From an uncultured euryarchaeote (GTDB lineage: Archaea; Thermoplasmatota; Poseidoniia; Poseidoniales; Poseidoniaceae), in assembly GCA_937899865.1 (NCBI GenBank), contig CALBRH010000054.1, positions 1 to 64,000 of the forward strand: a stretch of DNA of 64,000 bases, read 5' to 3'. Below, piece after piece: positions 51,966-62,776 of this stretch. The notes under the pieces are model-generated. The model had not been told where the DNA came from, searched no databases, and worked only from the letters and a program-made list of their open reading frames with translations. The number at the start of each line of letters is the position of its first letter. Positions within the stretch are counted from its first letter, which is position 1. Both the position numbers and the translations under genes were made by a program.

Positions 51966-53537
51966 TCACTCCTCTGGGATGTAGTACAATTCTACACTAC
52001 CTGTTCCAAGGGAAATTGGTTGACCTACAATGATGTTTTCTGCAACACCAGTAAGTTGGTCTCTCTCACCGATAATACCTGCTTTTAGCAAGTGGTTAAC
52101 TGTAACTTCGAATGCAGCTCGTGCAAGGATACTGTGCTTTGTACCTGAAACACCGTGTCGCCCTATCGCTCTTACTTCACCTTCTGAAGTCATTACATCG
52201 GCAACTAATAACAAGTGTCTAACATCGACTTCAAGTCTCGCTCCATCTAGAGTTGCTTGTAATTCGTTAATGATTGCTTGTCTAGCAGCTTCAATACCTA
52301 GATATTCGTAAATCTCAATAATGTTGTTAGTATATGTTCTACTTCGATCAATTGTTTCAATTTCACTTACTCTAGAAAGATTTGAACCGATTGTGGATAA
52401 ATAATATTCACCAGTTTTGTCATCAAGTTGTACATTAGCTCTCTCGACATTAGGAATACCCTTTAATCTCAAATCTCTAATCTTCTCTTCAAGTTGTAAA
52501 AGCATAGTGTATGATGGCGGGTTTTCAGCAAGTTCTGCCAAATCTTCCTCTGCATGGACACCTGGAATCAAAGTTAACTTGGAAGGATTCTTTTCCTTGT
52601 CAGCCTGTACATATAATCTAGTTGCTTTTTCCAACTTGTCCTTAACTTCTGCAGGAGTCATATTTTTCTGCTTCAAATTAGTCTTGTTTAATTTTAGAAC
52701 AAGTCGTCTTTGTGCAACATCGGTCTCAAGGCTAGCAATGTTTACAGTTGTAGTAACTTCGATTGCTGCAGCCAACTTTTGAGCTTCCTCTGCAGATTCT
52801 TTCTTATCCGGATGTAGTCTAATTGTCATAGTTGGAGTTTGTGGGACTTTTCTAGCGTCAACAATTTCAATAATCCTTGGTAGACCTTGTGTTACGTTAA
52901 CAGTTGCAACACCCGCATAGTGGAAAGTACGCATAGTCATCTGGGTTCCTGGCTCACCAATTGATTGAGCAGTAATGATTCCTGCTGCTTCATAAGGGTC
53001 GATACTTGCTCTCTTTAGAGCAAAAATTGCCTCTTGAACGACTTTCTTTGCTTGTGGCTTAGTTAATTTCTTTTTATCTCTTGCATGAATTGCCATTGTC
53101 AAATCATGTAAAATACGATTAGTAAATCTCCTTGAACCTGATTCTTCAACCGCAGCAACAATACTCTTGTAAACAGGATCATTAGATAATTCATCCTCAA
53201 GTCCAGTCAATTTTGCATCTACATTGTAAACATCGATGTCTGCTGTAGTTTTTACTCTTGAGCGTGCTCTTGACTTTTTACCAGTTCTACTTAGTCTAAC
53301 TGAGGTAACTGGGCCAATTGCTTCATTATTTGCGAGTTTGTTTTTCTGATTTGCTCCATCAATAATACCTTTGATTTGAGTAGCAGTCTCTGAATCGGTT
53401 TCACAAATTTGAGCAATGTTTTCAGTAGGAAGAATCTTAACATCGTCCCACTTTCTATCATCTGCTAAGATATGAGCAAAGTTTTCTGCGATTCCTAAAT
53501 CCATTAGCTTCTTCTTAGTTGCACTCTTAACTACCAT
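51966..53537 (-). CDS. rpoA2: RNA polymerase subunit A'' (Rpo1C) with N-terminal extension
   Basis: [49 protein letters not shown]. Confidence 0.97.
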
Positions 53538-56500
53538 CAGATTTCACCTCCTTGTTCATCAGAACCTTCAAATTCCCAGCCACCCATGTCGTCTTCACTT
53601 TCTTGTCTTTCTCGAGAATCACGTTTGACAACTGTAGCACCTTCAGTACCCAATGCTTCATCAACAATTACATCGATATTGAATGGAGATCCGTGTACAC
53701 CTCTGGAAGGGTCGATTCCGTCTTCACCATAACTAAATTGAATAATTCTGTTTGCAGTGTTCCTAACTGAAAGCATTTCATCATCGTATACTTTCAAGTC
53801 ATCCATAGCGTTAATTAGTCTTCTTTGCATATAACCGGACTTAGCAGTACGAACCGCTGTATCTACCAAAGACTCTCTTCCTGAGACTGATAGCATAAAG
53901 AACTCTGTTGGCTCAAGTCCACGCTTGAATGAGTTAGAGATGAAACCTCTATCTAGAGCGCCACGACCTCCTCGCTTGAAGTGAGCTAATACTCTATCAT
54001 GGTAACCTCTTTCCAATCTCTTACCACGAACCTTTGCTTGGCCTATGGAACCAGCCATCATAGTTAGGTTATCCATCGAACCTCTAGCACCAGAAATCGC
54101 CATGTTAACTGCTGCGTTGGTCGAACCAGACTGATTTAGTTCATCTTTAGCAATGTCACCAGCCTTTTGCTTACCTTCATCAAGCATTACCATGATGTTT
54201 TCTTCCAAAGTCTCACGTGGAGTTCTACCTGGACGGGTCTCGTATCCTTTACCATCCTTGCCAAAGGCTTCCAATTCATCCTCAACTAATTTTCTTGCAT
54301 CAGCATTTGCTTTCTCAATTGCAGCTAATGATTCAGGAGATAGGTCCTCATCATCTATACCAGTGGTAAATCCTAATGCAGTACATGCTGCAATAGAGAG
54401 TTGAGTGAAATCATCAAGGAACTTAGCGCCCTTTTCAGGACCATTGGTTTGTACAATTGCGTCAAGTAACCTTCCGTCTTCAGCACCAATTGCTCTCTTG
54501 TCTAAAGTTCCATCAACACTACCGTCCTTGACAACAACATCATCATTTGATCTACTTCTAAATCGAAGATGGATATTATCTGGAATAATTAGAGAAATAA
54601 TATCTTGGCCTCTGAAACTATCTTTGCCATTCTCATCTTTGACAATCTCAGGCAATAAACCAGTCCAACCAATATTTCCAAGCATCTCAAGTCCATGTTC
54701 TACTGAAATCAATGTTCCAGGCCTAGATAGTAGGTAAGCACCAGAAATGTGGTCATGAATACCACCAATTACCGCACCACCATATCTTGGAGTCAAAATA
54801 TGTTCTTGCACTCGCATTAGAATCTTAGCTTCTGCTCTTGCTTCTTCTGACTGAATAACGTGAAGATTCATTTCATCGCCGTCAAAGTCAGCGTTATATG
54901 GAGTACATACTGCTAAATTGAATCTAAAAGTATGTCCTTGCATAACTCTTACTTCGTGAACCATCATGGACATTCTGTGTAATGATGGTTGTCTATTGAA
55001 GATAGCAACATCACCATCAATTAAGTGCCTCTCAACTAGCATACCAGGCTTAGGATTACCATCTCGGTCGAAAGTTGACAGTCTGTCCTCAACAGAGGTT
55101 CTTTCGCCCCATTCATCAGCAGGACTGCCACAGTGAGGACAAGTAATCTCCAAATGTTCTGGAATTGGATCTGAAGTAACTTTGTCAAGTTGCTCTAACT
55201 CCCACATCCATTTGTAATGCAGAATTGCTCTTGGGTCATCCTTTTCTAATGCATTTCCATTGATATCTTCTCCTCTAAGGTTAGCAACAGTTGAAGCAAC
55301 ATCAGCAACATAATTAGTTTCCTCAATACTTGGATCAGCAATAGATCTGCTAATCTCCTTTTTGATTACCAATCCGGGTAAGAAGTTTGGAGCAGGCATT
55401 ACTTTATTCAAGTCTGGTCTTAATGTGGTCTCATCTGTACATTCTGGATTATGACATCTAAAACCAGCATTGATAAATCTGCTTCTTGCATTAATTCGAA
55501 CTCTTCTCTTGTCACCACGAATAATGTAGTTTACACCTGGGTGCACATCAGGACCTCTAAGAATCATCTGTCGCATTTGCTCTCGATTCCTCATAGTTAC
55601 TCGGATTGGAACTGTTAGTTCTCTAGCAATCTTTTCAGGGACCCCAACTTCATTGACACCAAGATATGGGTCAGGTGAAATTACTGATCTGGCACAGAAG
55701 TTTACACGCTTTCCTGATAGATTACTTCTAAATCTTCCTTCCTTACCTTTCAATCTTTGAGTAAGTGTCTTCAAAGTTCTACCTGAACGGTGTCTTGCTG
55801 GTGGAATACCTGAAGTTTGATTATCAAAGTAAGTTGTTACGTGGTATTGTAGCAATTCCCACAAGTCTTCAACAATAAGTTGAGGTGCACCAGAATCTCT
55901 GTTTTCTCTAAGCCTTTGATTGATACGAAGGACGTCAACTAACTTGTGAGTCAAATCGTCTTCTGAGCGATCACCGCTGTCTAGGGTAATAGATGGTCTA
56001 ACAGTAATTGGTGGAACTGGTAAAACCTTCAAAACAGTCCATTCAGGTCTGTTTTGTGTATGCATACCAATAAAGATTAGATGTTCTAATGGAATACTGC
56101 TCAACCATTCTCTAACATCCCTAGGGTTAAGTTTTCTCTCCGTTTCCTTACCAGCACCTTGAGTCTCTAACTTTTCCTTGAATGTAGTTGGTTTGTCAAG
56201 TGTAATCTTACCTTGAGCCGCTCCACAGTGCATACAGACTTTTCTCTTAGCACCTGAAGTTACCTTCTCAATTTCTTTAATGATTTTTGAGAATTCTGTT
56301 GAACCTACACCGTGTTTCAAAATAATATCACGTACTCTTGTACGATAGTAATCTTGTTCACTTAATTCAGGATTTGAAGGGTGAGTATTTTTCTCATCGT
56401 GCAACAAAATCTTGCTGCAAGAATTACAAGTTGCCTTTAGTGCGGTCTTGATAAGCCCAACAAAACCAATGTGAATTACTGGAAGTTCAAGTTGAATATG

Positions 56501-56737
56501 ACCAAAATGCCCTGGGCTTTCATCATACTTGCAATTGTCAGTAGGACAAACAAGTCCTGGCTCAATTACACCCATATGAGGGTCCATCAAACCTTGTCTA
56601 TATGCATGACCATCATCCTTGTAAGTATCAGCAGTCTTAACTTCTACAGCTGACATCTTTCTAATTTCATTAGGGTCCATAAGACCAAATCTAATACTAG
56701 CGATTCGCTTTGGTATAAGGGTTGTAACTCTGCTCAT
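53537..56737 (-). CDS. rpoA1: RNA polymerase subunit A' (Rpo1N) with insertion
   Basis: [30 protein letters not shown] catalytic motif, [12 protein letters not shown]. Confidence 0.98.
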
Positions 56738-59700
56738 CTTCGATCCTCCAGTTCTAATCTCATGGCCACACCTAAACTCTTCATCTCATCTAACAACAAC
56801 TTGAATGCATAAGATGTTTGCACCTTGTAAACTTCAGCGCCATCTCCATGAATCGGACTTACATATGTTCGACGCTTTGGATCATACCAAGCAAGATGCC
56901 CAGATTGGGCACAGACATACATGTCGATACCATCGGATTCATCCAGCAATCTGTCTTTAATGACCATTGATGCACCGTGAGCAATCAAACAGTCACGTTC
57001 CATCTCACCAAACCTCAGTCCACCTTGTCGGGCACGACCTTCGGTTGGTTGACGTGTCAAAATTTGAACACGTCCTCTTGAACGGGCATGTATCTTTGAA
57101 CTTACCAAGTGATGTAATCTTTGGTAGTAAATACATCCAATGAAAATCTCTGCTGGATATGCTTGTCCAGTTTCACCATTAATCATAGTTTCACGTCCAG
57201 AGTGAGCGAATCCATTTCGAATTAGACCATCTCTTAGACTTCCTTCCTTCTCTCCTCTAAATGCAGTACCGTCGATTCTTCTACCTTCGAGTGAACCTAC
57301 TTTACCACCAATCATTTCCAAAACGTGAGCAACTGTCATTCGTGATGGAATAGCGTGTGGATTGATGATTAAATCTGGTACAACCCCTTCAGCAGTAAAT
57401 GGCATATCCTCAGGGTCTACTAATCTTCCAATTACACCCTTTTGTCCGTGTCGTGAAGCAAACTTATCGCCAACTTCTGGGACCTTATGACTTCTAACCA
57501 TGACTCTAACCATGCGCCCAGAGTCTAGAGATTCAGTGACATATACATTGTCGACCCATCCTTTCTCTCCGTGTCTTACAAGCATTGAGGATTCTCTTCT
57601 TTCTTGAGCCATCAAGAACGCTCCACCAGATGATTCTTCCAAGAATCTAGGTGGACTTGTCTTACCAACTAGAACATCTCCACCTTCAAGTTCTTTCTCA
57701 GGCAGAGGTAATCCATCTGCTTCAAGATGGAGATATGACTCATCGGGCTTCAATCCCTTTACTTCTTGTAGGGAAGAACCTGGCTTCTCGATTTCTTCAA
57801 CTTGACCACCTGGGAATCTTCGACGTTCTGCATTGTAAGTCCTCATGAAAGTAGAACGACCAAGTCCAAGATCTATTGAACCTCGATTCATGATTACTGC
57901 GTCTTGCATATTGTATCCATGTAGAGACATAATTGCAACTATGAAATTTTGACCTCCAGGTCTTTCATCAAAGTTTGTGGTTTCCATTGCTCTTGTACGA
58001 GTAATGGATCTTTGAGGATAGTGTAGAATATGAGCTCTTGTGTCTGGTCTTAGACGATAGTTGGATGATGGTAGACCAAGAGATTGCTTAACCATTGCAG
58101 TTCCACCAGTAACACGAGGTGTTGAGTTGTGTTCTGGGTAAGGAATTAGCGAAGCACAGACACCAAGTACTAATTGCGGATCAATTTCACAGTGAGTATG
58201 CTCTGTAGTATATTCCAAAGGTACTGAAATACTTGCAACTTCCCAATCATTGTTTGGCATTCTAATTTTAGCCTTCAGTTTAGCAGTTGTTGCGCCTGGC
58301 TCTCCCAAGTTAGTCCATTCTACACTTTCATTACTAATTGGTCTACCAGCATACTTTCCTTTAGGAATTGTAGCAGGTAAAACGAAAGGTTTTGGAGCGA
58401 TGTAAAGGTCTTCTTCTTCTTCAGCATCCACCCACTCAACAATCCCTTCATTTACTAGATCCTTAAAGGTCATCTCCCCAGATGACAGTTTTTGCAAATG
58501 TTCTGATTCAAGTCTAGGTGCACCATCGTATAGAATCAATAATGGACGTAGAATTCGACCTTTATCGGTATTGATGAAAATATCACGATTTTCACTATCG
58601 TATCGGATAGAAACTTCGGAAGGAATTGCTCCACGTCGTCGAGCAGATTTGAAGTGCCTAACTAGATTTGTTCCACGCTTATGGATACCATAAATATCAC
58701 CATTAACGTGGATTCTGTCACCATCGCTCCAATCCTCCGGCTGATATACATCTAGTTCATCTAATTGGTTTCTAACATCTTGCTCACTGATGTATTCTGA
58801 AACATCAATCATTTGAGCAGCATTCTTTACTAGACCACAGTTTTGTCCTTCAGGTGTTTCGTTAGGGCATAGTCTCCCCCAATGAGTAGGGTGAAGGTCA
58901 CGTGCCTCGAAGTGAGGTTGGCTTCTAACAAGAGGAGAAGTTACTCTTCTCATATGAGACAGCGCTGCTAAATATGTGGTTCTATCTAATAACTGGCTTA
59001 CGCCAGAACGACCACCAACCCAATTTCCAGTTGCTAATGCATGCATAATCTTGGAGGTTAGAACATCAGGCCTCAGACAGGAAGTTATTCTCAACTCTCT
59101 CTTTCTATTGTGATGTCTCTCAAGTTGGTACTTTAGATCTCTAGCTAGTTGGTTTGATGAGACTCTAAACAAATCTTCAATCAAATCACCAGCAAGCCTA
59201 ACTCTCTTGTTTGCGTAGTGGTCTTTGTCATTTGGCTGCTTGGAATGCATTGCCATTTCTAGAACTTGCCTAACAATTCTACCAAGGAAAACTGCCTTCT
59301 TCTTTCGATCAGTTCCTTGATCGCCAAGGTGAGGTAATAATTCTCTGTCCAGCAATTGATCGACTCTTGCCTCACGGTAATCTTTTTGTTGACCAGCAGC
59401 AAATTTCTTTTGCAACCATTCGTGGGCTTCAAGCATATTTTGAACTGCATATTCTTCATTGTCATTTACTTCGTTGATGTTTGCAACGATATACTTGAAA
59501 GTCTCTGTTGGACCTGCAATAGCAGTAAAGATTTCTTGGTCATTATCAATGCCAAGAGCACGCATTAGAAGAACTACTGGAATTGGAGTTGTTCCTGCAG
59601 TACTAATCTTAACCATCAACATTCCATCTCTTCTCTTCTCAACAGTTAGAGGTTTTCTCATACCGTCTTTTTGTGAGAAAATCTTTGCAACCTCTGTTTG

Positions 59701-60342
59701 CTTTGCATATCTGTTGTTAATCTCAACAGTTACTCTGTTCGGAGCTAGATCTTCAGTTGAAATTAGTACTCTTTCTGTACCATTGATGATAAAATAGCCA
59801 CCAGGGTCTAGTGGGTCCTCGCCTTTTGTCTTGAGGAGTTGTTTCCACAAATCTGAATCCTCATTGGAGGTCGTAGGATATAATTGTCTATCACCTGCTA
59901 TGTGCGCAGGATGTAAGTTGCATCTCTTTGAACGTACCATAATTGGCATGCTTCCGACTTGAACTCCCTCTTCCTTTGGAGATGGTATTCCGTTTCTAAC
60001 GATTTGGAAATCAATAGTTACTGGAGACATATATGTTAATTTTCTCAATCTACATTCCATAGGTGTTGAAGGGTGCTCAGAACCATTTGCTTCTCTAATG
60101 GTTGGCTCTCCAAGTTGAATATTCTTTAGTCGAATAACAATATCTTGGTCAACAACGTCGAGTTTGATGAAACCACCTTCATCGTCCTCTACTTCTCCAT
60201 CTATTCCTACACGAATGTTACGAATTATCTTCTCCATACGAGACAACATATTGTCTCCAGCAGGTATACAGTCATCATAAGATGCAATTTGGTGATTTAC
60301 TAAACTTCTTTCCTTGAAAAATGATTGAATTATTTCTTGCAT
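56734..60342 (-). CDS. rpoB: RNA polymerase subunit B (unsplit Rpo2)
   Basis: GGYFIINGTER, CPNETPEG, GDKFASRHGQKG, RFGEMERD. Confidence 0.98.
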   Translation of the reverse strand: MQEIIQSFFKERSLVNHQIASYDDCIPAGDNMLSRMEKIIRNIRVGIDGEVEDDEGGFIKLDVVDQDIVIRLKNIQLGEPTIREANGSEHPSTPMECRLRKLTYMSPVTIDFQIVRNGIPSPKEEGVQVGSMPIMVRSKRCNLHPAHIAGDRQLYPTTSNEDSDLWKQLLKTKGEDPLDPGGYFIINGTERVLISTEDLAPNRVTVEINNRYAKQTEVAKIFSQKDGMRKPLTVEKRRDGMLMVKISTAGTTPIPVVLLMRALGIDNDQEIFTAIAGPTETFKYIVANINEVNDNEEYAVQNMLEAHEWLQKKFAAGQQKDYREARVDQLLDRELLPHLGDQGTDRKKKAVFLGRIVRQVLEMAMHSKQPNDKDHYANKRVRLAGDLIEDLFRVSSNQLARDLKYQLERHHNRKRELRITSCLRPDVLTSKIMHALATGNWVGGRSGVSQLLDRTTYLAALSHMRRVTSPLVRSQPHFEARDLHPTHWGRLCPNETPEGQNCGLVKNAAQMIDVSEYISEQDVRNQLDELDVYQPEDWSDGDRIHVNGDIYGIHKRGTNLVRHFKSARRRGAIPSEVSIRYDSENRDIFINTDKGRILRPLLILYDGAPRLESEHLQKLSSGEMTFKDLVNEGIVEWVDAEEEEDLYIAPKPFVLPATIPKGKYAGRPISNESVEWTNLGEPGATTAKLKAKIRMPNNDWEVASISVPLEYTTEHTHCEIDPQLVLGVCASLIPYPEHNSTPRVTGGTAMVKQSLGLPSSNYRLRPDTRAHILHYPQRSITRTRAMETTNFDERPGGQNFIVAIMSLHGYNMQDAVIMNRGSIDLGLGRSTFMRTYNAERRRFPGGQVEEIEKPGSSLQEVKGLKPDESYLHLEADGLPLPEKELEGGDVLVGKTSPPRFLEESSGGAFLMAQERRESSMLVRHGEKGWVDNVYVTESLDSGRMVRVMVRSHKVPEVGDKFASRHGQKGVIGRLVDPEDMPFTAEGVVPDLIINPHAIPSRMTVAHVLEMIGGKVGSLEGRRIDGTAFRGEKEGSLRDGLIRNGFAHSGRETMINGETGQAYPAEIFIGCIYYQRLHHLVSSKIHARSRGRVQILTRQPTEGRARQGGLRFGEMERDCLIAHGASMVIKDRLLDESDGIDMYVCAQSGHLAWYDPKRRTYVSPIHGDGAEVYKVQTSYAFKLLLDEMKSLGVAMRLELEDRR

Positions 60343-60353
60343 TTTGATCCCTC

Positions 60354-61004
60354 TCAGTTACCCTCTACTATTAGCCTGTAAGCAACCGTCTTACCCGCTG
60401 ACGGTGAGCGTCTAACTACCTTGACAACCCTGTCAGCAATCCATCCTGCTGCTAGAGGTTTGTGTTCAGGATCTGCTGCCAATTTGGCGTTGTCAATTGC
60501 TTCTGCTTGTTCCTTCAATACTTGAACTACGGGGTCTGTAATCAGTATTTTAGGTAACAATTCTTTAGCAATCCTTTGTTCTCCTGTCTCTTCATCTAAC
60601 TCTAGCATTTGCCAGGGTGCCAACTCGGCATTCTCGATTTCAAATTGTTCTTCTTCGCTGATATTTGCATCTCCAACCAATTCCTGATGAGGAACTAATT
60701 CATGGTTTAATGCATTAAATCTAAGTGTGATTTCAGGTCTGTCAAAGTCATCTATTGCTCTTGACCTAATGGTAATTTTCTTGCTTTTCTTTTGAGCTCT
60801 TCTTCTCGAGCCTTGTTCGGCGATTACCGCCATAACATTAGTGAATGCTTCAGAATCCTTGGATGTACCCAAAATTGAGGCAATTTCATCATGAGATAGA
60901 GTTTTGATATCTGTCATGTTTCTGTCCGTTGCCAATTTATGAGCAAATTCTTCGGACACACCTAATTCCATTAATCGCTTTTTTGTTGCGCTTTTAACTA
61001 CCAT
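60354..61004 (-). CDS. rpoH: RNA polymerase subunit H (Rpo5) with N-terminal extension and insertions
   Basis: HELVPH, LPKI..TDPV, VVRRSPSAG..VAYRL; 216 aa versus about 80 aa for canonical RpoH. Confidence 0.92.
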   Translation of the reverse strand: MVVKSATKKRLMELGVSEEFAHKLATDRNMTDIKTLSHDEIASILGTSKDSEAFTNVMAVIAEQGSRRRAQKKSKKITIRSRAIDDFDRPEITLRFNALNHELVPHQELVGDANISEEEQFEIENAELAPWQMLELDEETGEQRIAKELLPKILITDPVVQVLKEQAEAIDNAKLAADPEHKPLAAGWIADRVVKVVRRSPSAGKTVAYRLIVEGN

Positions 61005-61054
61005 TTTAGACCCCTCAAAAAACCCGCAACAGGCTAGACCGGCAGCGAATCAGG

Positions 61055-61128
61055 CGGGCCCGACGGGGTTCGAACCCGCGACCGTCCGGTTAAAAGCCGG
61101 ATGCTCTACCTGACTGAGCTACAGGCCC
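61055..61128 (-). tRNA. tRNA-Lys(TTT)
   Basis: GGGCCTG...CGGGCCC G; TCCGG-CTTTTAA-CCGGA anticodon arm; GTTCGAA T-loop. Confidence 0.97.
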
Positions 61129-61264: not shown

Positions 61265-62776
61265 ATGGTAATGAATAAAGGCTTCGCATGGAACAAAACA
61301 TCTGTGAGCGGGCCAATTTTTACCGATGATTCTGTTGCCCGGGAACTCGAATTGATAGATAAAGATACCAAATTTTACGAATGGAAATCTCCGACTGGAG
61401 AACTTCTTTCAGTTGAATTACCGCACACAGTTTATCCGCCTAAAGAAGATACAACTTTTATGGCTGAAAATTTAGTAAGACTAGGACCTGGAAAAGGTCG
61501 CAAATGCCTAGAGATCGGAGTTGGCAGCGGAGTATTATCGCTACTTTGTCACCGCCAGGGATGGAAAGTTTCTGCATGTGATATCAATCCTTATTCAGTA
61601 GTTGCTGCTAAACGACTCTTTTCTCTAAATTCAGCTTCAGATATCGAAGTCAAAGAAGGCGGCCCGGGCCCGAAAGAAGATGGTGAATCAATACAATGGG
61701 CGACGAAGAAAAATTTTGAACTAATTTTCTGGAATATGCCTTACATTACTCCAACATTAAATGATGAAAGTCATTTAGGCCCTTTGGAAGATGCTGCTTT
61801 GATAGATACCTCAACTACCAGTTTAATTTCCATCACTCTTGCTAAAATAAAATTATCAAATCTACTTGCTAACTCTGGCATCGGTTTGTTTACTGTTGGA
61901 GAAAAGTTTACTCAAGATTATCTTGAAGACATTTGTTCAAAAAATGGATTTTCCTGTAGAATTATCAACCAGTTGCATTTTGATGATGGAGAATGTTTGA
62001 GAGTTATTGCTTTTTGGCACCCATATTCGAAAACTCCACCAATTCACAAAGAGGTAGTTGGCTCGACAAACAGTGAATTATTGACAAATGATTGGCCAGT
62101 TGGCAGTTCTTTGTCTACCGATCTTCAAACAAAAGGCCGAGGAAGATACGATAGAAAATGGATTAATTCTTCTGAATTGATGGCTTGTTCTTGGAAAATT
62201 GAAAAGCCAATTGAGATGTCTCCTGCAATATTGCAAATTATCTGCGGACACCTAGTTAAGCAATCACTTCAATCTATTGACGATTTTAGTAATGATTCAC
62301 AATTAATTCTAAAATGGCCAAACGATCTAATTATACTAAAGGGAGAAAAATTTGGCAAGGTTTCAGGAATTCTTGTAGAATCTGTATCGAAGGGCAAAAT
62401 AACACATACTGTTGTAGGGATTGGCATAAACATCTCAAACAATTCTGCCGTACAAAATGAAAATTTCCCAATAGCATATACTAATTGGTTTTCAAGTTCA
62501 GCAACTGCTGAATATTTGCAAAAACAAATCCACTGTAGGATTGCTGGTTTGTTTGAATCGGTTGAAGGAATACCTAATACTAATTTTGATTATGTAAAAA
62601 GTATGGCACTAACAACCATAAAAGAGGGTTTCATATCTTGCAAGAGTATTTTCTATAGAAATAGTAAAGTGACTTTTGTAAATGTAAATGATGATGGAAC
62701 TGTATCACTAAAGCATGAAGACGGCACTCAAATATCTTGTGATGAAGGTGAACATCTAGATTGGTTATTCCTTTGA
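61265..62776 (+). CDS. Fusion of HemK-family SAM methyltransferase and biotin-protein ligase (BirA/BPL)
   Basis: VYPPKEDT, LEIGVGSG, NMPY; then STNSEL, QTKGRGR, KWPNDL, KVSGILVE, GIGINI. Confidence 0.85.
   Translation: MVMNKGFAWNKTSVSGPIFTDDSVARELELIDKDTKFYEWKSPTGELLSVELPHTVYPPKEDTTFMAENLVRLGPGKGRKCLEIGVGSGVLSLLCHRQGWKVSACDINPYSVVAAKRLFSLNSASDIEVKEGGPGPKEDGESIQWATKKNFELIFWNMPYITPTLNDESHLGPLEDAALIDTSTTSLISITLAKIKLSNLLANSGIGLFTVGEKFTQDYLEDICSKNGFSCRIINQLHFDDGECLRVIAFWHPYSKTPPIHKEVVGSTNSELLTNDWPVGSSLSTDLQTKGRGRYDRKWINSSELMACSWKIEKPIEMSPAILQIICGHLVKQSLQSIDDFSNDSQLILKWPNDLIILKGEKFGKVSGILVESVSKGKITHTVVGIGINISNNSAVQNENFPIAYTNWFSSSATAEYLQKQIHCRIAGLFESVEGIPNTNFDYVKSMALTTIKEGFISCKSIFYRNSKVTFVNVNDDGTVSLKHEDGTQISCDEGEHLDWLFL

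Follow-up and report, generated by a model that had tools for sequence, protein, structure and literature searches.

In archaeal RNA polymerases (RNAPs) the lower jaw is built from subunits A', A'' and H. Cross-links locate H, in the pre-initiation complex, on the downstream DNA at +10..+20, and those of A'' reach +17 or beyond (PMC2847245). Archaeal Rpo5 has no Rpb5 jaw domain, which leaves a positively charged groove that is occupied in Sulfolobales by Rpo13, with its helix-turn-helix and its Lys-rich tail near +8, and in Thermus by a beta-prime insertion (PMC2675907). RpoH of Archaea has been described as having no N-terminal extension (PMC3906176), and a 2026 survey of domain changes in the small subunits deals with Rpo6 and Rpo8 only (PMC13257274). 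Polymerases to which Sso7d or the helix-hairpin-helix (HhH) domain of topoisomerase V has been tethered bind their template more tightly, tolerate more salt and are more processive (PMC12630135 and its reference 52), and the linkers that work best have at least about 30 residues (PMC12630135). The subject of this work is an N-terminal module of (HhH)2 type that is shared by RpoH and RpoA'' of Poseidoniales (Marine Group II) archaea, and that was noticed in a stretch of 64,000 nucleotides (positions 1 to 64,000 of contig CALBRH010000054.1, assembly GCA_937899865.1), hereafter the window. The reading that we favor, with a probability of roughly 0.55 and by analogy with described systems, is that the two duplicated HhH modules, held on basic tethers, grip incoming downstream DNA.

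The first-pass annotation of the window had claimed that RpoH and RpoA'' start with the same extra domain. Its hand count of 27 identities in 45 residues is correct (reverse-complementing 60870-61004 and 53403-53537 and translating them yields the two peptides), and BLASTP finds 33/61 identical residues (E 2e-15), the homologous domain being about 62 residues long in both subunits. The identity of the host proteins is given by their Pfam cores, by the fold match of RpoH and by the gene order of the operon, which the window shares with 20 relatives. Rpb5_C (PF01191) is found only at RpoH residues 140-212 and Rpb1_5 (PF04998) only at RpoA'' residues 136-469, Pfam assigns no family to either N-terminus, and Foldseek matches the RpoH core, which starts at an invariant RFN..LNH motif, to subunit H of solved archaeal RNAPs and to eukaryotic Rpb5. 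The basic linker that had been seen after each domain is also real: in RpoH its net charge is +4 (K/R 28%; 24-29 residues across relatives), and in RpoA'' it is +9 (K/R 34%, S/T 23%; 29-38 residues across relatives). The genome from which the window comes (2.0 Mb, 91% complete) holds exactly two copies of the module; a third candidate (contig C9, E 0.28), which sits within an SF1 helicase, is spurious.

Both domains are translated from codon 1. It had been allowed that the true starts might lie downstream, so that the domain would be untranslated, and many database entries for RpoH (P0014, P0016, P0028 and many others) are indeed 205 residues long and start at Met12, losing the eleven most conserved residues. 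However, the position of the start codon is common to all 21 operons for both genes (ATG, or TTG in five rpoH genes) and is preceded by ribosome-binding sites: a G-run at about -13..-7 of rpoH in essentially all 21 operons, and GGAGGTG at -14..-8 of rpoA'' in 18 of them, the ATG of rpoA'' overlapping the rpoA' stop (TGATG). Codon 12 of rpoH is Ile or Val in 13/21 operons and ATG in only 8/21. A start at Met12 is rejected on account of this non-Met codon, of the upstream ribosome-binding site and of the conservation of residues 1-11, and the 205-residue entries are likely to be a systematic start-codon miscall. That the N-terminal region is absent from the mature proteins, be it through a downstream true start or through an annotation or assembly artefact, is hardly credible, as residues 1-11 are the most conserved part with free synonymous variation, and the pair is found in 381 of 400 independent genomes. 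Only 48 nt separate the upstream tRNA-Lys from the rpoH ATG (61004). RNA-library contigs from one metatranscriptome study span module, linker and core, although they can neither show the transcript start nor exclude DNA carry-over.

Selection acts on the protein, because the invariant residues use many synonymous codons: Ser5 is encoded by both AGY and TCN, Leu11 by five codons and Arg10 of RpoH by six. Within a genome, third positions are only 35-70% identical at identical residues. This divergence, together with the synonymous variety, upholds the view that the resemblance reflects conservation at the protein level and not an assembly duplicate, and the same free variation at conserved residues leads us to reject a nucleotide-level element.

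The AlphaFold2 model of full-length RpoH predicts five helices (6-13, 18-25, 30-34, 38-45 and 52-72) in a domain with a predicted local distance difference test score (pLDDT) of ~86, followed by linker residues 69-97 with pLDDT <50 and then by the Rpb5_C core; the domain modeled alone has pLDDT 84.3 and helices 5-13, 18-24, 30-34, 38-45 and 52-65. The best Foldseek matches are the (HhH)2 domains of FANCM-FAAP24 (template-modeling (TM) score 0.68), UvrC, XPF, the RAD51 N-lobe and NusA, and the matches in VIA are SAM domains (Z 7.0-8.0; root-mean-square deviation ~2 A over 60-64 residues, sequence identity 6-19%), topoisomerase V HhH (7.0), DisA (6.2), NusA AR (6.1-6.2), FANCM (6.0) and XPF (5.9). 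The model has the two HhH motifs and the connector helix of the five-helix (HhH)2 fold, with moderate scores and in a fold that is common to SAM domains; the structural match to the SAM five-helix fold does not discriminate between SAM and (HhH)2, because both belong to the same SCOP-level fold class. No SAM family (SAM_1, SAM_2 etc.) was found in a Pfam scan of 44 members of the module with E up to 1. Compared by hhalign with the RadA N-terminal (RadA-N) (HhH)2 domains of the phylum, the module scores 22.2 against 9.6 +/- 2.1 for column shuffles (P 3.8e-4, 0/200), and these alignments, together with the bridging sequences described below, link it by homology to accepted (HhH)2 members. With respect to the hairpin consensus h-x-x-h-x-G-h-G-x-x-x-A-x-x-h, hairpin 1 keeps L11, L14, G15, [VI]16, A21, L24 and A25, with the HhH spacing G15-[VI]-x-xxx-A21-xx-L24, and hairpin 2 keeps I41, G46 (~50%), A52/54 and I57. 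Weak matches to Sigma70_r4 and HTH_Crp (Pfam and PHROGs, E 0.02-0.1) were taken as chance similarity of helical motifs. The HhH resemblance, first proposed from a residue pattern, is thus borne out by the predicted fold (AlphaFold2, Foldseek and VIA) and by the profile comparison with RadA-N, which support the view of the module as a divergent five-helix (HhH)2/SAM-like bundle.

The module is a constant of its order. Its occurrence in 381 of the 400 sampled Poseidoniales genomes includes all 67 high-quality ones, almost always with exactly two copies, and the third copies seen in five genomes of the order stem from a duplicated rpoH or rpoA''. The Marine Group II module profile has no match in 45 sister-family genomes of the class, and only two marginal matches in ~237 other genomes of the phylum. 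These two (G541:C68:6641-6754 (-) and G655:C49:12526-12639 (-); E ~4e-4, module positions 10-47) lie in a 407-residue frame within one genus of another family of the phylum (f17), possibly another distant HhH carrier. As the first-pass annotation had stated for the canonical subunit, RpoH is short and has no such domain in the sister families and in the rest of the phylum; RpoH frames outside the order span 80-181 residues, the longer ones being read-through of an upstream tRNA gene. The RpoH and RpoA'' copies of one genome are 31-58% identical, and a tree gathers the modules of RpoA'' in a single clade (support 100/98), distinct from those of RpoH. This separation points to a single old duplication with no concerted evolution, and recent gene conversion is rejected on the same ground and on that of the diverged third positions. 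Both modules are under purifying selection throughout the order.

In RpoA'' the module belongs to a wider pattern, since N-terminal HhH extensions of this subunit occur across the phylum, where the length of its open frames varies between about 360 and 970 residues. In the sister families, RpoA'' is 758-860 residues long and has a conserved extension of ~400 residues (L147:202-2496 +; L152-L181). Its first 70 residues and the Marine Group II module align collinearly, starting at the second residue (score 21.4 vs 9.9 +/- 2.4 for shuffles, 0/150), and its second segment aligns with RadA-N, the middle domain serving as negative control. The parts of this extension are an HhH-like module, a conserved ~145-residue domain (residues ~90-235) that has no Pfam match, an (HhH)2-like segment and a Lys/Glu-rich linker. 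A phylum survey of 20 genomes (RpoA'' loci L182-L201, e.g. L186:1542-2702 +, L182:1754-2878 +, L196:1223-2089 -) revealed one to three canonical (HhH)2 domains in eight of the 20 extensions (RadA-N hidden Markov model (HMM), E ~5e-7 to 3.5e-18). A Pfam scan of four of these eight and of L185 passes HHH_5 at E 6e-8 to 6e-36, and these same extensions touch the model of the bacterial alpha subunit C-terminal domain (alpha-CTD), a member of the same clan, with 25.9 bits for a cut-off of 23.8. Six other extensions start with a module matching the sister type (E 3e-5 to 2e-17), and five of these six bridging N-termini also match the Marine Group II module HMM over 45-60 residues (E 7e-5 to 9e-3). 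Extensions with two or three canonical HHH_5 domains have Lys/Ala-rich spacers; some sampled extensions have neither HhH type, and the one in L199 starts with sequence resembling the middle domain of the sister families.

A survey of Thermoplasmatota had been suggested for both subunits together, and its outcome divides them, the RpoH module being specific to the order and the RpoA'' HhH extension being phylum-wide. The RpoA'' copy is therefore not a peculiarity of Marine Group II, and represents the local, divergent form of the phylum-wide HhH extension at the A'/A'' split site, a place that looks like a hot spot for the gain of DNA-binding domains. By these comparisons, only the RpoH copy is specific to Marine Group II. 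It would stem from one duplication event that placed the RpoA'' module on rpoH in the Poseidoniales ancestor, and would have been kept since; the direction from RpoA'' to RpoH is inferred from this distribution and not from a rooted tree.

The module is also met on proteins other than polymerase subunits. Among 1.84 billion representative proteins, a profile search gave only 211 matches, nearly all with the module at residue 1, and 71 of them run on into non-RNAP sequence, forming 36 groups of which 14 have several members (a few of the 71, namely P0205, P0209, P0228 and possibly P0237, are frameshifted rpoA'' fragments and were discounted). Judged from sequence, the module is not confined to the polymerase and heads at least 14 unrelated protein families. 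The carriers comprise families of ~330 and ~290 residues, several of 120-230 residues, zinc-ribbon-rich proteins, the 1292-residue P0194, for which there is no PDB relative and weak leads only in ESM-Atlas, and an 851-residue AAA_15/AAA_21 ATPase with the module at residues 93-156; further named carriers are P0210/P0225/P0218/P0223, P0239/P0261/P0264, the P0198 family, the P0206/P0222 family, P0202, P0185 and P0214. Most have a module of RpoA'' type and few of RpoH type. In P0185 (L058:10001-11239 +, JGI contig Ga0066376_10002453) the RpoH module is followed by the whole linker (to ~88) and Rpb5_C is replaced by a zinc-ribbon-rich C-terminus; its neighbors are open reading frames (ORFs) with no Pfam match (ORFans), a ThiF/E1-like gene and a protein with a Rho_N-like motif, there is no rpoB downstream, and the contig has a G+C content of 42.5% vs 48-54% in related chromosomes.

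Carriers are found on unbinned contigs of 52-160 kb, one carrier deriving from the <0.22 um fraction of a Tara sample. The 400 Marine Group II genomes contain none of them, nor did any turn up in IMG/VR, in GenBank phage and archaeal-virus records (tblastn) or in a BFVD fold search, and whole-GTDB representative scans for P0242 and P0214 gave nothing. Only the contig sizes and the one Tara sample suggest a viral origin. Magroviruses have linear genomes of ~100 kb, and the unresolved 'group D' elements carry an RNAP A homologue (PMC5434244); a link between these elements and the carriers is a lead only. It could be imagined, although we consider it improbable, that the module is an address tag of the transcription machinery, whose RpoH-type and RpoA''-type copies pair on the polymerase and have, one or the other, been captured repeatedly by large unbinned Marine Group II elements. 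Such elements would be ~100-kb viruses, 'group D'-like elements or megaplasmids, which would have joined the tag to small ORFans, zinc-ribbon proteins, an OLD/ABC-like ATPase and the 1292-residue protein. The fusions would then dock on the host polymerase or its DNA and redirect or block host transcription, by mimicry of a subunit terminus.

As for the function of the two polymerase-bound copies, each subunit carries at its extreme N-terminus a domain of ~62 residues, predicted to be of (HhH)2 type, on a strongly basic and probably disordered tether of ~30 residues. A role as DNA clamp is proposed because H and A'' are both parts of the lower jaw, which touches the downstream DNA; the positions of both N-termini relative to the DNA are those given in the literature. 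In this model, the two modules and their basic tethers would act as sequence-independent clamps on the DNA backbone of the incoming duplex, with gains in template affinity, in the stability of the open complex and in processivity. The site that they would occupy is held by the Rpb5 jaw in eukaryotes and by Rpo13 in Sulfolobales, and their effect may be likened to the higher salt tolerance and processivity that a tethered HhH or Sso7d confers on engineered polymerases.

Several observations weigh against such a clamp. The module is a charge dipole, with about +4 in residues 1-12 and about -5 in residues 13-62. Taken as a whole, the folded part has a small negative charge (net about -1.5 to -2), and positive charge resides only in residues 1-12 and in the linker. 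Among HhH domains, acidic ones like NusA AR1/AR2 are binders of protein and not of DNA. Hairpin 1 is devoid of the second Gly of the HhH consensus, and hairpin 2 is degenerate, with conserved Asp/Ser in RpoA''. HHH_5 (PF14520) stays below the Pfam threshold on the module (3 of the 44 members matched, best E 0.053). The top VIA Z-scores belong to SAM domains, whose ligands are proteins or RNA, and no Z-score exceeds 8, a range in which the tool warns that matches may reflect a common helical arrangement. Finally, V3, K4, S5, T7, K8, K9, L11, G15, A21, H22, L24, A25, D27 and K34 are conserved alike in RpoH, in RpoA'' and in the unrelated carriers, and the variable positions likewise coincide among them; the near-invariance of residues 3-11 even in unrelated carriers would also fit recognition of a specific partner.

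It is for the acidic core, the degenerate hairpin 2 and the matches of SAM and NusA-AR type that a protein-protein docking handle is kept as the main rival, a tentative alternative that we regard as possible but doubtful. According to it, the H-type and A''-type copies would pair with each other, as in XPF-ERCC1 or FANCM-FAAP24, or have a binding partner in common (for example a transcription factor, chromatin protein or coupling factor), and the unrelated carriers would use their captured copy to reach the same partner or the polymerase itself. The top Foldseek match is the heterodimerizing FANCM-FAAP24 pair, both paralogue types have been captured independently, and the constancy of residues 3-11 extends to hairpin 1 across RpoH, RpoA'' and the at least 14 carrier families. 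On the other hand, the same position of RpoA'' is held in other lineages by arrays of canonical HHH_5 of DNA-binding type, contact with nucleic acid would agree with the strongly basic character of the tethers and with the basic N-terminal helix, and DNA binding and dimerization are not mutually exclusive in (HhH)2 pairs. The basic helix and linker would also serve an RNA-binding module, directed to the nascent transcript or to a regulatory RNA in the manner of the Smaug and Vts1 SAM domains, which are among the VIA matches (Z 5.3-5.6). Nevertheless, these matches rank low within a common fold, the tethers on the lower jaw are at the DNA-entry side, far from the RNA exit in the published architecture, and the sequence profiles favor HhH and not RNA-binding SAM; we consider RNA binding very unlikely.

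What can be stated is that the jaw of a multisubunit polymerase has two natural fusions to a known DNA-binding fold, with a function that we infer. No published description of this feature was found for Marine Group II or for Thermoplasmatota, the searched literature being incomplete and novelty thus unproven. Marine Group II rank with the surface ocean's most abundant archaea, and in them the same HhH module has been gained on two jaw subunits, in a region where eukaryotes (Rpb5 jaw), Sulfolobales (Rpo13) and Thermus (beta-prime insertion) have each gained something different. The fusion may be regarded as a natural counterpart to engineered polymerases with a DNA-binding domain on a tether, and it opens a recombinant test of how an extra contact with downstream DNA affects a multisubunit RNAP. 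In addition, it corrects the gene start of many database entries, its portable module marks a set of unexplored proteins on large unbinned marine contigs, and the wider phylum offers a series of HhH arrays at the A'/A'' split site.

Coordinates in the window of the rpo operon and of the parts of its two module-bearing genes.
Feature	Position	Strand	Extent	Basis or remark
Single rpoH-rpoB-rpoA'-rpoA'' operon	53537..60342 holds rpoB and rpoA' between	minus		Gene order shared by 20 operons of relatives
tRNA-Lys(UUU) directly upstream of rpoH	61053..61128	minus		ARAGORN
G-rich ribosome-binding site of rpoH	61011..61016	minus		GAGGGG at -12..-7
rpoH ORF	60354..61004	minus	216 residues	
RpoH N-terminal module, predicted (HhH)2 type	60813..61004	minus	Residues 1-64	AlphaFold2, fold searches, hhalign vs RadA-N
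RpoH basic linker	60723..60812	minus	Residues 65-94	pLDDT <50 at residues 69-97, net charge +4
RpoH canonical Rpb5_C core and stop codon	60354..60722	minus	Residues 95-216 and stop	Pfam PF01191, Foldseek
rpoB	56734-60342	minus		Between the two module-bearing genes (ORF list)
rpoA'	53537-56737 (53540-56737 without stop)	minus	1066 residues	ORF list, Pfam
rpoA'' Shine-Dalgarno GGAGGTG, inside the rpoA' 3' end	53545..53551	minus		GGAGGTG in 18/21 operons
rpoA'' ORF	51966..53537	minus	523 residues	
RpoA'' N-terminal module, predicted (HhH)2 type	53352..53537	minus	Residues 1-62	33/61 identity to the RpoH module; invariant across the order
RpoA'' basic Ser/Thr-rich linker	53244..53351	minus	Residues 63-98	Net +9; disorder presumed from its likeness to the linker of RpoH
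RpoA'' canonical body (Rpb1 domain 5, trigger loop, jaw) and stop	51966..53243	minus		Pfam PF04998, alignment

Other traits of the locus and of the genome accompany these features. In the family of the window, the Rpb5_C core of RpoH matches Pfam at E 1e-6 to 1e-15, far more weakly than in the rest of the phylum (1e-21 to 1e-35), and it has two lineage-specific insertions of ~9-10 residues each (about residues 114-122 and 174-183). RpoA' contains ~200 residues with no Pfam family between the end of Rpb1 domain 1 at 340 and the start of domain 2 at 559, with Cys pairs that could form a zinc ribbon, and it ends as an acidic tail immediately before the basic start of RpoA''. A 503-residue ORF (61265-62776, +) diverges from the tRNA-Lys/rpoH region. 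The same genome encodes a 167-residue protein with an N-terminal HHH_5 and a long, Lys/Ala-rich tail like that of histone H1 (G000 contig C65:14177-14338 +; L107:1468-1968 +), a free-standing form of HhH plus basic tail.

Among known systems, the N-terminal (HhH)2 domain of RadA/Rad51/Dmc1 (HHH_5) resembles the module in its five-helix bundle with two HhH and a connector helix, in the G-h-x-xxx-A-xx-h spacing, in its N-terminal position with a flexible connection to the protein body, and in profile-profile similarity. The module differs from it in being below the Pfam threshold, in the loss of the second hairpin Gly and the degenerate hairpin 2, in its conserved basic N-terminal helix from Met1, and in its place on RNAP subunits and not on a recombinase. 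NusA AR1/AR2, XPF-ERCC1 and FANCM-FAAP24 share the fold (VIA Z 5.4-6.2; Foldseek TM 0.68), an acidic folded core and the presence of two related (HhH)2 domains, but theirs sit at the C-terminus, in elongation or repair factors and not in a polymerase. The engineered chimeras with Sso7d or topoisomerase V HhH join a non-specific DNA-binding domain through a ~30-residue linker to a polymerase terminus (PMC12630135); they are artificial and single-subunit, with a measured effect, whereas the Marine Group II fusion is natural, is known from sequence and involves a multisubunit RNAP.

The first-pass annotation had compared the pair with the two bacterial alpha-CTDs (PF03118). The analogy holds for the architecture, as in both cases an enzyme has two small HhH-class domains on flexible linkers, and would be less close for the function, as the tethers are at the downstream jaw and not upstream of the promoter. 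Moreover, the modules are N-terminal and lie on the Rpb5 and Rpb1 homologues, instead of C-terminal on the Rpb3/11 homologue, and they are two diverged paralogues and not identical chains; Pfam gives no PF03118 match on the Marine Group II module, only the HhH extensions of other lineages touching that model. The eukaryotic Rpb5 N-terminal jaw and Rpo13 of Sulfolobales are, like the module, lineage-specific additions beside Rpo5/Rpb5 at the downstream-DNA channel. Homology to the Rpb5 jaw (PF03871) is not seen, there being no Pfam match and the Foldseek alignment covering only ~110 columns, those of the Rpb5 C-terminal domain. Rpo13 also has a small helical motif and a Lys-rich tail that is thought to touch DNA near +8 (PMC2675907), but it is a separate polypeptide of helix-turn-helix type, and the module is of HhH type, fused, and present on two subunits. 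Since the tether points at the downstream jaw, the Rpb5 jaw and Rpo13, and not the alpha-CTDs, would be the closer functional analogues of the Marine Group II modules.

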